A stretch of DNA of 64,000 nucleotides from Escherichia coli (GCF_003334305.1 NZ_QOWS01000004.1); one strand, 5' to 3'. Numbered from the stretch's first letter, positions 32,754-41,312 are shown. Made by a program: numbers and translations. Notes: a model not told the origin generated them from the letters alone.

Positions 32754-33047
32754 TTATTGATTATCAACAGGAAGAAAAGAAACCAAACGTAACCCATCCA
32801 AATCCACCGGAATACGTCTGTTTTCTCCCCAGGTCTGAAATTCAAAACCCGACTCGGTATTGGTCGCCCAGGCCATCACCACATTTCCGCAACCAGCCAG
32901 TTGGGTAATTTGCTGCCAGATCATCTCCCGAATACGTTTTGATGTATCACCAACATACACACCGGCACGCACTTCCAGTAGCCAGATTGCGAGCCGTCCA
33001 CGTAAGCGCGGCGGGACATTTTCTGTAACAACCACGACCATGCTCAT
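32754..33047 (-). CDS. cas2: CRISPR-associated endoribonuclease Cas2
   Basis: 97 aa, [34 protein letters not shown]; 1-nt overlap with the cas1 stop. Confidence 0.95.
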
Positions 33048-33967
33048 CAGCCGCGTCCTCGATGACCGCTATCGCCCAACGTTTCAGGTTCGGGGATGGC
33101 TGGCGGTAACATATCCGGCGCAGGTTGTGGCGGTTCAATTTCACCTGCGGCAAGGACTTCCTCAATTAACGGTATTAATTTGCCCGTTAACTTAGTGCTA
33201 CGGAAAATATCGCGACAGGCTAATCTGACTTCTTTATCAGGTTCTGCGGGTTGCCTCGCTGCTATTTCAAATGCCTTTGGCACAACCGAATCAAATTTAA
33301 TGATATCGGCTATGTCATAAACAAATGAAAGCGGTTTGCCACTATGGATAAACCCAATAGCGGGCGCATATCCCGCGGCTAATACTGCCGCTTCAGATAT
33401 ACCGTACAGACATGATGTAGCAGCACTGATGCAGCGATTCACAACATCGCCTTTTTCCCAGTCTTTAGGATCGTATTTGCGACCATTCCATTTCACACCA
33501 TATTGTTTCGCCAGTAATGCATACGTCTGGCGAACGCGAGATCCCTCAATTCCACGTAGCTGCTCCACTGAACGGCGAGCTGGCGGTGGCTCACGAAAAC
33601 GTAATTCATACATTTTGCGCACCACCTTCAGGCGTAGATCTTCCGTTAAAGCCAGCTTTGCCTGGTAGAGTAACTTATCAGCACGCGCCCCACCGGGTTG
33701 TCCGGAAGAGTAGACGCGAACACCCGCTTCACCGACCCAGACCAGTAGCGTCCCCACCGTGGCGGCCAGATGCACCGCCGCGTGGGAAACTCTCGTTCCC
33801 GGTTCGAGCATAATGCAGGCGACCGATCCCACCGGAATGTGCGTGCGGATCCCGGTTTTGTTGATCAGCACGAAAGCACCGTCCAGTACGTCGATTTGAC
33901 CGTACTGGAGGAAGATCATGGAGGTGCGATCTTTTAACGGGATCGGACTCAGTGGTACAAACGTCAC
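33047..33967 (-). CDS. cas1: CRISPR-associated integrase Cas1 (type I-E)
   Basis: 306 aa, [27 protein letters not shown]. Confidence 0.96.
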
Positions 33968-34614
33968 GCCTCTGCTCCGGGTTTGATCAGCATCAGACCA
34001 CAGCCGAACGCCCGGCTTTTGCCATACCCCTGACTGAGACGTTGCAGAAATAACCCGGGATCGGTGACCGTAAGCATCCCCGTATAATCCACGCTACTGA
34101 ACTGGATCAGTTGCCGGGTGTTTTCCCGCCGGGGTTGTTGTTGTCGGTAGGCATCAACCGAGGTATCCAGTAGTGTAAAACCACTTCTTTCCCCCTGCGC
34201 TGCCAGCCAGTCCAGCGCCGCCTGTTGTTGATGCAACCAGATATCACGCCCTTCCGCCTGCCCCTTCACCTGCCGTTTCGCCTCCATCAGCAGATCGTGG
34301 CGCTTGCCCGCTTTACAGATTGTTGGATTCGCCCGCAGGTTGAAACAAAGAGATTGTCCGGTACGCAGCTCGGACACAAATGGTCGGCATTCGATGGTGA
34401 AAGTTTCACTTTCCGCCGGGCGTGCCTGCGAGAGGACAAAAAAGCGAAACGCGCCCTGGAGTTCTTCCCGACGATAAAGAAATTGCCTTTCTTTGCCGCC
34501 AGGGAAGAGATCCCACAGCCACTGATGCATCACATATTCACCGCGATCCACCAGATGCAGCAACTGCGCAGGCGAAAGCTGGCCGGTATGTAAGGTTATT
34601 CTTGAGAGGTACAT
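33964..34614 (-). CDS. casE: Cascade subunit CasE/Cas6e (pre-crRNA endoribonuclease)
   Basis: Start chosen at MYLSRITLHTG (216 aa) inside the 262-aa track ORF, which extends upstream into casD. Confidence 0.85.
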   Translation of the reverse strand: MYLSRITLHTGQLSPAQLLHLVDRGEYVMHQWLWDLFPGGKERQFLYRREELQGAFRFFVLSQARPAESETFTIECRPFVSELRTGQSLCFNLRANPTICKAGKRHDLLMEAKRQVKGQAEGRDIWLHQQQAALDWLAAQGERSGFTLLDTSVDAYRQQQPRRENTRQLIQFSSVDYTGMLTVTDPGLFLQRLSQGYGKSRAFGCGLMLIKPGAEA

Positions 34615-38515: not shown

Positions 38516-38612
38516 ACGCATCCTCTCGTAAAAAAGACCATCCCAGGTCGGTTGTCCATCTTTCCATCCTTTTCGGTGTATCAACTATTCAGAGAGTCCT
38601 GTCGCAGACATC

Positions 38613-41312
38613 TCAACCAACCTTGCCAATCAATCCTTCCGTAGCCGAATACCCGCAACTTTCGTCATCGTTGACTAAAATCACGTTTGCCATCTCCGGA
38701 TCTTGTCGCTGTTCAATGCACCACAGCCTGAACGCCTCTCCCTCCAGTAAAGAAAACTCATCCCGATGTTTTTTCCACCAGCTTCGGCGCACTCTGACAA
38801 CGCTCATTTCCCATGCGTGAGCACCGGTGGCATAAGGCTTCACCACACCGTCAATACAGGTAGCCAGCCACAGGGAAACAGACTCCTCAGCCAGACGTGT
38901 CGACAGTTTTTCCGGGAGGTAATCGTTGATATTGGCGGCATAGCCGGGCCTGAAGTTCAGCACAAACTTTTTAGCCATTGCGCGATCGCAGTAATATTTG
39001 CCCACTTGCTCCTGCTCGCTGCGGGCAAATCCTTCCGGCATTACCACGTCCTCACCGTAGACGGATTCAATAAGAAGCCGGGCTGCGTATGGCATCTGAA
39101 TAGCACCTTGCTCACGCAGCACACGCTGCGTCAGCCAGATTCGCCCATGATCGGGATAGACAAATGCACTGTTACGCATGGCACTGCCAAACCATTCGTC
39201 GCCAGGAGAGTCGTCCCAGACGGGAGCCAGAATCAGCAATTCAGGGGGGGAACGCTCGTCCTTTCCGTCACGCTTTAACTGACCATTAATATCGCGGATA
39301 TGCCGCTGTAATCGTCCTGCTCGCTGAATCAGCAAATCAACAGGGGCCAGGTCGGAGATCATTTCGTCCAGGTCAATATCCACGCTTTGCTCAATTACTT
39401 GTGTACAAACAATGACTTGCGACGCTCTCTGTAAACTACAATATTTACCAAAGCGTGCCAGTGTCTCCGTTTCAATTCGCTGGCGATCGCTAAAAGCAAA
39501 GCGGCTATGAAAAAGTGAAAGGCTGGAAGCAGGAATGACGCCGCGGGCAAGCAGCTGACGATGAACCTTAATAGCGTCATCGACAGAATTCCGGATCCAG
39601 GCGATGCATTTCCCCTGACTTACCGCCGATTCGATACGCGCAATACACTCTTGTTCACTATGAAGCCAACCCACGCTGACGCTACGCTCAACGTCTTTGC
39701 GCGTCGCTACCCGGTGTGAGTTCACATCGGATTTCGTGACATGCGTCAGCCAGGGGTAATCATCCTTTTCCAGGAACGGAGCTTCTTGCAGGCCCTCTGT
39801 ACCCCGCGCAAAGGCAGCGACGAGTTTGTCGCGCTGCTGTTGAGATAACGTGGCAGAAAGCAAAATAACGCTGTTTCCGCCACGCGCCTGCCGCTCGATC
39901 AACCCTTCAAGAATGCACGACATGTAAGCGTCACAGGCGTGGATCTCATCAGCCAGCAGGATTTTGTTACTCAGCCCCAGAAGCCGCAGATTATTATGTT
40001 TGAACGGCATCACCGCCATCATCGCCTGATCCAGCGTGCCGACGCCAATTTCAGCCAGCAACGCCTTCTTGTTACTGTCGGCAAACCAGGCCGCACATCC
40101 CTGACTGAACGTTTGTTCATCCGGTTCTTCTGACCCGACTAAATCACCAGACCAGAGTGATTCATTAAAGCGGTCCATTAATGTGCGGGCACTATGTGCC
40201 AGCACCAGGCTGGGGCGGGATTCTGGCGAATAGAAAGCAAGCCAGGTTTTGACCAGCCGATCGTACATGGCATTGGCCGTTGCCATTGTTGGCAGACCAA
40301 AAAACAGCCCCTGAGCTTTCCCCGCAGCTATCAACCTGTGCGCCAGGATAAGCGCCGCTTCTGTTTTACCTGCGCCAGTCACATCTTCCAGAATAAATAA
40401 CTGCGGTCCTTGCTGGCTGATATCCAGATCCAGCACCTTTTGCTGTAACGGTGTCGGATTCTCAATAAAAGGAAACAGCGTATTAATTCCGTTGAAAGGC
40501 GCGACTTTTGCTTTTAGAGGAAAGACGGTTAAGGCGTTTTGAGCCTGAATTAAAGTTTTCTGCCAGTAACCTTTAATATCCATTGGGTGTGCGACGCGTG
40601 GAAAAAATCGCGTTGACGAACCCGTCCAGTCTGCGAGCACGACGGTTGCAGAGATATACCAGGAAAGGTGTTTTATAAGTTCAATGCCCTCATCATCATC
40701 CCAGAATGCGGGGATCTCTATGAGCGGAAACAGTGGTTTGATTTCAAGGAGAAAATCTCGTGCTGCAGCTTTGTCTTCAGGCAGAAAATTATCCAATTCA
40801 TCCATACGATCAGGGGGCCGACCATGATGCCCTGTCGTCACGGGCATCCACATTTCTATCACTCGCCTAAGTTTGCGCGGAGAGAGCGAAGATGAAGGAA
40901 GTAACTCCTGACATTCACTTAAATAATGATTCCACAACCAGTAGCCCAGCGTTGAATGAGAGATTTTTTCGTAATTTTTTCTGGCACCTTCCTGAATCTT
41001 GAGTTCAGGGGGCAGGTAAAGTTGTTGAAAAGAGCGGGCAAATTTTCCAATATCGTGCCAGCACAGCAACCAGGCGAAAAATTGAGCCGCCTGTTCCTTG
41101 TCAGAAATCCCTAATTGACGAAAATAATCAGCCAGCCCGAAGCAATTTCTTTTAACCATTAAATAGCCCATCGCGGCTACATCCAGCGAATGCCAGCAAA
41201 GAAGGTGATAGTCGTCGCCCCCGTCTTTCTCGCCGCGTCGGGTTTTTCCCCAGAAATCAAAAAAAGTCACAATATTTTTATCCTTCAGTAAACTTAAAGG
41301 ATATTTACGCAT
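38613..41312 (-). CDS. cas3: CRISPR-associated helicase-nuclease Cas3 (HD nuclease + DEAD/DEAH helicase)
   Basis: 899 aa; N-terminal HD motif (HDIGKF) and helicase motif GAGKTEAAL. Confidence 0.93.
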   Translation of the reverse strand: MRKYPLSLLKDKNIVTFFDFWGKTRRGEKDGGDDYHLLCWHSLDVAAMGYLMVKRNCFGLADYFRQLGISDKEQAAQFFAWLLCWHDIGKFARSFQQLYLPPELKIQEGARKNYEKISHSTLGYWLWNHYLSECQELLPSSSLSPRKLRRVIEMWMPVTTGHHGRPPDRMDELDNFLPEDKAAARDFLLEIKPLFPLIEIPAFWDDDEGIELIKHLSWYISATVVLADWTGSSTRFFPRVAHPMDIKGYWQKTLIQAQNALTVFPLKAKVAPFNGINTLFPFIENPTPLQQKVLDLDISQQGPQLFILEDVTGAGKTEAALILAHRLIAAGKAQGLFFGLPTMATANAMYDRLVKTWLAFYSPESRPSLVLAHSARTLMDRFNESLWSGDLVGSEEPDEQTFSQGCAAWFADSNKKALLAEIGVGTLDQAMMAVMPFKHNNLRLLGLSNKILLADEIHACDAYMSCILEGLIERQARGGNSVILLSATLSQQQRDKLVAAFARGTEGLQEAPFLEKDDYPWLTHVTKSDVNSHRVATRKDVERSVSVGWLHSEQECIARIESAVSQGKCIAWIRNSVDDAIKVHRQLLARGVIPASSLSLFHSRFAFSDRQRIETETLARFGKYCSLQRASQVIVCTQVIEQSVDIDLDEMISDLAPVDLLIQRAGRLQRHIRDINGQLKRDGKDERSPPELLILAPVWDDSPGDEWFGSAMRNSAFVYPDHGRIWLTQRVLREQGAIQMPYAARLLIESVYGEDVVMPEGFARSEQEQVGKYYCDRAMAKKFVLNFRPGYAANINDYLPEKLSTRLAEESVSLWLATCIDGVVKPYATGAHAWEMSVVRVRRSWWKKHRDEFSLLEGEAFRLWCIEQRQDPEMANVILVNDDESCGYSATEGLIGKVG

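Follow-up and report, generated by a model that had tools for sequence, protein, structure and literature searches.

A type I-E CRISPR-Cas operon of Escherichia coli, occupying positions 32754 to 41312 on the minus strand of a stretch of 64,000 nucleotides (nt) (GCF_003334305.1 NZ_QOWS01000004.1; the window), is the published, common cas-E1/cas-EO variant with a CRISPR-A repeat and is thus already known. A first-pass annotation of the window had noticed that Cas1 and Cas2 resemble those of E. coli K-12 while Cas3 and the Cascade proteins diverge, and had proposed either recombination within the cas locus or a distinct I-E subtype variant. This interpretation was partly supported: the operon is a distinct variant, not a mosaic. 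Very probably, it represents an E1/cas-EO allele with its own array, leader, cas genes, and hok/sok, and the uneven likeness to K-12 does not stem from this operon itself.

Two variants at this locus were distinguished by Diez-Villasenor 2013 (PMC3737337) as cas-EO (O157:H7; CRISPR-A, leader-A) and cas-EK (K-12; CRISPR-T, leader-T). According to Almendros 2014 (PMC3903273), where the two are called E1 and E2, E1 is the ancestral majority form, which clusters with Salmonella and E. albertii and was "altogether replaced" by E2 in a minority of strains including K-12; each variant has its own leader, with integration at the array, hok/sok is present in all but E2 strains, and the guanine-plus-cytosine (GC) content is 53.5% for E1 and 45.6% for E2. 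The Cas proteins of the window were 85 to 100% identical at the amino acid (aa) level to those of E. albertii and 69 to 96% identical to those of Salmonella diarizonae. All 13 repeats of the adjoining array were of the CRISPR-A type (ending in AACAC), the leader was of the L1/leader-A type (94 to 99% identical to other E1 strains), and a Hok/Gef coding sequence was located between cas3 and cysH. Operon GC was 51.5%, compared to 44.8% in K-12, which is slightly under the published values but preserves the same contrast. Gene by gene, all eight cas genes were 94 to 99% identical to O157:H7 at the nucleotide level, and strain A7, an E. coli from orangutan feces in which zero pseudogenes are annotated at this locus, matched the entire stretch at 100% identity. 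With the E1/cas-EO systems of O157:H7, E. albertii, and Salmonella, the operon shares the iap-cysH locus, gene order, CRISPR-A repeat, L1-type leader, hok/sok, and a GC content of about 51 to 53%; nothing of substance sets it apart from typical E1 loci, apart from a perfect first repeat and strain-specific spacers. Of 5426 complete E. coli genomes, 2420 carried a window-type operon (at least 80% coverage) and 1114 a K-12-type operon. The partial operon matches that were sampled as candidate E1×E2 hybrids look like deletions or insertion sequence insertions.

Gene-by-gene comparison with MG1655 as the K-12 reference bore out the contrast described by the first-pass annotation. Cas1 and Cas2 were 84% and 86% identical to their K-12 counterparts (aa), whereas identity was 27 to 30% for Cas6e, 35 to 37% for Cas5e, 31 to 33% for Cas7e, 16 to 36% for CasB (varying with the alignment; 24 to 36% in local alignment), 20 to 24% for CasA (only 54 bits against the K-12 CasA structures), and 29 to 31% for Cas3. 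Among solved structures, the window Cas1 matched K-12 Cas1 with 584 bits and any other Cas1 with at most 213 bits. The description of Cas1 and Cas2 as "very close" to K-12 nevertheless overstates the likeness: cas1 and cas2 were only 73% and 74% identical (nt), with third-codon identities of 37% and 47%, respectively, and their synonymous sites were saturated (about 3.4 synonymous substitutions per site [dS] for cas2). In contrast, the flanking genes were 97 to 99% identical to K-12 (nt; dS, 0.035 to 0.14), and CysD, Iap, CysH, and CysI were 99.1 to 99.7% identical (aa).

Nucleotide homology with K-12 spanned iap, the array, the leader, cas2, and cas1, ended at position 33955 (the 5' end of cas1), was absent from cas6e to cas3, and restarted at 41657, exactly at the hok ATG. 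The leader was 68% identical to that of K-12, and no spacers in common with K-12 were found. Because of this leader divergence, the saturated synonymous sites of cas1-cas2, and the lack of common spacers, the array, leader, eight cas genes, and hok together are one allele separate from that of K-12. The operon does not fall within the cas-E2/K-12 variant (at least 97% identity to the K-12 cas genes, CRISPR-T repeat, and no hok), and its Cas3 scored below the cut-off of the K-12-specific Cas3 model NF007248 (423 versus 569). The K-12 cas-E2/cas-EK system (structures 4QYZ, 4TVX, and 5H9F for Cascade and 4P6I and 5DS4 for Cas1-Cas2) is like that of the window in subtype, gene order, chromosomal site, and 32-nt spacers, but differs in its cas3-casA spacer (414 nt versus 97 nt here), in the deletion of hok (intact here), and in its acquisition motif, published as CTT for cas-EK and CWT for cas-EO (PMC3737337). 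Effector proteins of the window also matched those of Thermobifida fusca (PDB 5U07, 6C66, and 4QQW), a member of a different phylum: the window Cas7e reached 154 bits against Cse4 versus 104 bits against K-12 CasC, and Cas3 gave a 219-bit match. This likeness covers effector proteins and is one of score only, no T. fusca Cas1 being among the PDB matches listed.

If K-12-type cas1-cas2 (plus the array) had recently been joined to a foreign cas3-Cascade block, with the breakpoint at the cas6e/cas1 junction, amino acid identity to K-12 would leap over one gene boundary, as it does from about 27% (Cas6e) to 84% (Cas1), and K-12 nucleotide similarity would begin at that same boundary, as observed. 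Such a recent mosaic is nevertheless extremely unlikely. Some genes of a recent E1×E2 recombinant should show flank-level identity to K-12, and none did (74% [nt] for the best cas gene); recent derivation of cas1-cas2 from K-12 was rejected on their saturated synonymous sites. Moreover, leader and repeat both differ from those of K-12, identity to a single reference (O157:H7 or strain A7) is near-uniform across all eight genes, an outcome that the first-pass annotation itself had named as refuting a mosaic, and the window Cas1 plus Cas2 have the same cluster partners as its effectors, namely, E. albertii, Salmonella, Klebsiella, and Citrobacter. The recombination within the cas locus that the first-pass annotation had offered as one alternative was thus not borne out, whereas its other alternative, a distinct variant, corresponds to the published cas-E1/cas-EO.

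The likeness of Cas1 and Cas2 to K-12 is instead attributed to the high constraint on both proteins, with 0.13 nonsynonymous substitutions per site (dN) for cas1/cas2 versus 0.72 to 1.1 for the effector genes. Taken to its limit, this explanation would have E1 and E2 split once as whole operons, with Cas1/Cas2 evolving 6 to 8 times more slowly and no exchange of modules. In its favor, Cas1 identity forms a plateau of 75 to 85% over Gamma- and Betaproteobacteria, the same ordering of proteins is seen between E1 and Salmonella (Cas1, 95%; Cas7, 85%; CasA, 75%; Cas3, 69%), and the strongest purifying selection and smallest distances were found at cas1/cas2 in Salmonella (Pettengill 2014, PMC3994646). 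To weigh this against module exchange, one genome per species was scanned with a Cas1 alignment, which returned 80 I-E loci ranging from Enterobacterales to Marinomonas, Methylophaga, Shewanella, Bordetella, and Parasutterella. Cas1 and Cas2 were 70 to 100% identical to those of the window in all 80 loci, and Cas1 kept 74 to 99% identity whatever effector class adjoined. Effectors of E1 proper (E. albertii, Salmonella, and several Klebsiella and Citrobacter species) were 66 to 99% identical to the window; "class X" effectors (Pectobacterium, Raoultella terrigena, Citrobacter portucalensis, and others) were 31 to 59% identical to the window and 21 to 40% identical to K-12; and E2-class effectors (C. 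amalonaticus, Erwinia endophytica, a Pantoea species, Marinomonas rhodophyticola, Oceanospirillum linum, Cycloclasticus, and others) were 37 to 74% identical to K-12 and 22 to 37% identical to the window. Locus pairs with Cas1 84 to 87% identical had median identities of 60% for Cas7, 48% for CasA, and 46% for Cas3, and the window-K-12 pair (28%, 20%, and 29%, respectively) lay in the lowest decile of such pairs. Slow evolution of Cas1/Cas2 thus accounts for a large part of the contrast but leaves some of it unexplained.

Rate differences with no module exchange are improbable for further reasons. The nearest Cas1 relatives of K-12 (90 to 95% identical [aa]) adjoin class-X effectors only 21 to 33% identical to those of K-12, whereas the loci with the nearest E2-class effectors (45 to 74% identical to K-12) have a Cas1 just 78 to 86% identical to that of K-12. 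In neighbor-joining trees (100 bootstraps) including 78 I-E loci from other species, the E1 class was monophyletic in 100 replicates for Cas7 plus Cas5 and in 89 for Cas1 plus Cas2. The E2 class was monophyletic in 100 replicates for Cas7 plus Cas5 but in 0 for Cas1 plus Cas2, and K-12 nested only with class-X enterics in 0 and 99 replicates, respectively. These support values indicated that the adaptation and effector modules of the window are concordant, whereas those of K-12 are discordant. The scores of the window Cas7e and Cas1 against solved structures agreed with this. On this evidence, the module-level chimera, reflecting an ancient discordance between adaptation and effector genes, would be K-12 and not the window. 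As to a possible different origin of cas1-cas2 and the effectors within K-12, GC at third codon positions shifts only slightly, from 36 to 42% in the effector genes to 43% in cas1-cas2.

Comparable discordance was seen in six same-genus or same-family pairs of loci from Citrobacter, Oceanospirillum, Marinomonas, Methylophaga, Halopseudomonas, and Alteromonadaceae, in which Cas1 was 90 to 100% identical but Cas7 only about 30% (19 to 35% over Cas7, CasA, and Cas3). In four pairs, nucleotide similarity restarted no more than a few bases from the start of cas1; in those from Alteromonadaceae and Halopseudomonas, it began about 830 to 870 nt further upstream of cas1. These pairs indicate repeated replacement of the effector cassette beside a retained adaptation module. 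Enterobacteriaceae UBA5654 and Citrobacter amalonaticus showed 81 to 84% nucleotide identity to the K-12 flank on the cas3 side. All three effector classes therefore probably occur at the iap-cysH site, in various Enterobacteriaceae.

It is conceivable, and we propose it only tentatively, that the E1/E2 dimorphism is one case of recurrent swapping of the I-E effector cassette (cas3 to cas6e) in proteobacteria, with a chimeric operon in K-12. The swapped cassettes would belong to a few ancient classes, mutually 25 to 35% identical, with the junction at the cas6e/cas1 boundary, and the resident Cas1-Cas2, leader, and near-invariant repeat would be kept or re-paired during the swap. The K-12 operon would then combine an E2-class effector cassette with an enterobacterial class-X type adaptation module, and E1, as in the window, would be the phylogenetically coherent form. 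Escape from effector-targeting anti-CRISPR proteins, with stored spacers retained, might plausibly drive such swaps. Module shuffling is an established general principle of CRISPR-Cas evolution (PMC6452270); in the limited literature covered, we came upon no paper that sets out a swapping of I-E effector cassettes between genera, beyond this general concept and the E. coli paper (PMC3903273).

The contrast of this E1/cas-EO allele with K-12 very probably has three causes. K-12 carries the alternative cas-E2 allele, by which the array-leader-cas-hok segment of a minority lineage was replaced as a whole, and Cas1/Cas2 are under extreme purifying selection in all proteobacterial I-E systems (75 to 95% identical from Bordetella to Escherichia). 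The K-12 effectors fall in a separate deep-branching class, while K-12 Cas1-Cas2 cluster with enterobacterial systems belonging to a further class. Some observations count against this account or limit its reach. The trees, with one genome for each species, were built by neighbor joining on distances derived from p-distances and are not model-based likelihood trees; the saturated dS bars separate dating of the cas1-cas2 split and the effector split from this one pair; and we infer operon function (CRISPR RNA-guided interference and spacer acquisition) from intact reading frames and family membership. As a minor departure, the array begins with a perfect repeat and has no degenerate iap-proximal repeat, which is present in most strains (Almendros 2014, PMC3903273).

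Short-tract recombination among E1 alleles, overlaid on the contrast with K-12, is real and has already been published. Pairwise differences were determined for five strains, and either partner of each pair may be the recombinant. Compared with strain AH25, differences amounted to 4.15% over positions 32660 to 36999 (leader to casB) but to 0.45% over 37000 to 41250 (casA to cas3), the latter matching the cysH-cysI background of 0.58% (P of about 1e-22 under uniform spread). Compared with strain CUVET18-1475, no difference occurred over the 3'-terminal 454 nt of cas1 (33047 to 33500), and differences amounted to 0.58% in cas5e and the start of cas7e (34460 to 35500), yet to 21% in casA. Within the E1 family, the operon is thus likely to be a fine-scale mosaic of tracts that E. 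coli E1 alleles have exchanged through homologous recombination. The uneven difference profiles speak for this, as do the results obtained likewise with GENECONV by Almendros 2014 (PMC3903273), mainly for Cascade genes of B1 strains; that these are pairwise differences from just five strains speaks against it.

For the window this matters little, its locus being a textbook case of the majority E. coli I-E variant. Results from K-12 may not transfer to most E. coli, a point already made by Almendros et al.; with effectors only 20 to 37% identical, this caveat covers the protospacer-adjacent motif (PAM)/acquisition motif, regulation via the long region between cas3 and casA, and sensitivity to anti-CRISPRs. 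The module discordance of K-12 and the occurrence of the same repeat with three deeply divergent effector classes would be of interest to CRISPR module evolution and hybrid I-E engineering, if confirmed by model-based phylogenies. Of all this, only the cross-genus module discordance might repay more work, and it concerns K-12 and other taxa rather than the window.

The segment from 32754 to 41312 extends exactly from the cas2 stop to the cas3 start and comprises eight contiguous open reading frames, all eight of which passed the curated type I-E NCBIfam cut-offs in a profile search (Table 1). The gene order cas3-casABCDE-cas1-cas2-leader-array is that of type I-E. Both signature subunits, Cse1/CasA (Cas8e) and Cse2/CasB (Cas11), were present, as were the backbone and processing subunits Cas7e, Cas5e, and Cas6e, and a Cas1e-Cas2e pair adjoins an array whose repeats are 29 nt and whose spacers are 32 nt long. 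Cas3 is a single polypeptide in which an HD nuclease (residues 38 to 233) precedes a superfamily-2 helicase (residues 306 to 676), with PDB matches to 4Q2C and 4QQW. The longest reading frame of cas6e reaches position 34752, with the profile match beginning at its residue 47. The CRISPR-Cas segment lies between iap and cysH. Judging from family membership, Cas1-Cas2 would add 32-nt spacers where the leader meets the repeats, Cas6e would cleave the repeat hairpin in the array transcript, Cascade (CasA1, CasB2, Cas7e6, Cas5e1, Cas6e1) would scan for PAM and protospacer, and Cas3 would degrade the target.

Table 1. Features of the CRISPR-Cas segment and adjoining hok region (window coordinates)
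Feature	Position	Strand	Profile match or remark
CRISPR array adjacent to cas genes (CRISPR2.1/CRISPR-I)	31897..32657	-	13 identical 29-nt repeats, 12 spacers of 32 nt
Leader, L1/leader-A type, 96 nt	32658..32753	-	Between cas2 and first repeat
cas2e, 97 aa	32754..33047	-	TIGR01873, 133.8 bits
cas1e, 306 aa	33047..33967	-	TIGR03638, 380.6 bits
cas6e/casE, 216 aa (per strain A7 annotation)	33964..34614	-	TIGR01907, 283 bits
cas5e/casD, 248 aa	34596..35342	-	TIGR01868, 161 bits
cas7e/casC, 351 aa	35353..36408	-	TIGR01869, 442 bits
casB/cse2, 178 aa	36420..36956	-	TIGR02548, 99 bits (cut-off 28.5)
casA/cse1/cas8e, 520 aa as annotated (longest reading frame to 38584)	36953..38515	-	TIGR02547, 609 bits (cut-off 70)
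cas3, 899 aa, HD nuclease and helicase	38613..41312	-	TIGR01596 and TIGR01587, above cut-offs
AT-rich region upstream of cas3	41313..41506	-	GC about 35% over 41100-41399
hok, intact, Hok/Gef family, 50 aa, of hok/sok locus	41507..41659	-	Annotation; K-12 homology boundary

The array has a periodicity of 61 nt and is transcribed on the minus strand from the leader. Every copy of the repeat reads CGGTTTATCCCCGCTGGCGCGGGGAACAC, or GTGTTCCCCGCGCCAGCGGGGATAAACCG as RNA-sense DNA; the first-pass annotation had correctly noted the AACAC ending in place of the K-12 AACTC, which is found in 12 of 13 K-12 copies. The two repeats are the same at 28 of 29 positions and differ at position 2 (U here, A in K-12); the A/U-polymorphic position lies 2 nt from the leader-repeat junction. 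That this A/T polymorphism marks the effector class was rejected, since among Enterobacterales GTGTTCCCCGCGCCAGCGGGGATAAACCG is the canonical repeat of loci with E1-class, with class-X, and with E2-class effectors alike, and the GAG... form of K-12 is rare; the AACAC/AACTC difference is thus a peculiarity of the K-12 lineage. Spacers matched no self-targets within the window, and with the array as query no protospacers were found in phage or plasmid collections, where only repeat-driven matches to other arrays were obtained. The degenerate terminal repeat of the K-12 array ends in AACAC, and the 81-nt iap-array junction (region 31816 to 31925 of the window) was 95% identical to K-12. A second I-E array (CRISPR-II/2.3) with 10 repeats is located at 58358 to 58935, in the plus orientation of the repeat. 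Its seven leader-proximal repeats are of the AACAC type, and its three leader-distal repeats end in GGAGCTC, combining the K-12-like T at the polymorphic position with an A-to-G change.

At the opposite end, the hok ATG marks the right-hand limit of the variant-specific segment, and the upstream sok/mok region accompanies the intact hok between cas3 and cysH. K-12 has lost hok and retained a sokX remnant; since homology stops exactly at the hok ATG and sokX alone is left, the E2 insertion removed the toxin gene. The AT-rich region upstream of cas3 is presumed to be the promoter/regulatory region of the operon. In K-12, the cas3-casA intergenic region holds the Pcas promoter controlled by H-NS and LeuO. 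This region (38516 to 38612 in the window) being so much shorter here, the regulatory architecture likely differs between the variants. The short gap and the AT-rich sequence upstream of cas3 suggest a single cas3-to-cas2 transcription unit, unlike the promoter arrangement of K-12; such a unit has reportedly been described in Salmonella Typhi. A promoter/terminator consensus scan of the operon gave no more sites than shuffled sequence.

Cas proteins of Pseudocitrobacter vendiensis were 86 to 98% identical to those of E. coli E1, much nearer than those of Salmonella or Klebsiella, which suggests that they were recently acquired from Escherichia or that the taxonomy or the assembly is at fault. 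Short contigs of metagenome-assembled genomes labeled "Bacillota bacterium" and "Collinsella sp." encoded cas products 94 to 100% identical (aa) to the E1 proteins of the window; these most likely reflect E. coli contamination of the bins. Decay of adaptation genes was observed in some E1 strains, with an internal stop in cas1e of strain 118UI and a cas2e cut to 225 nt in CUVET18-1475.

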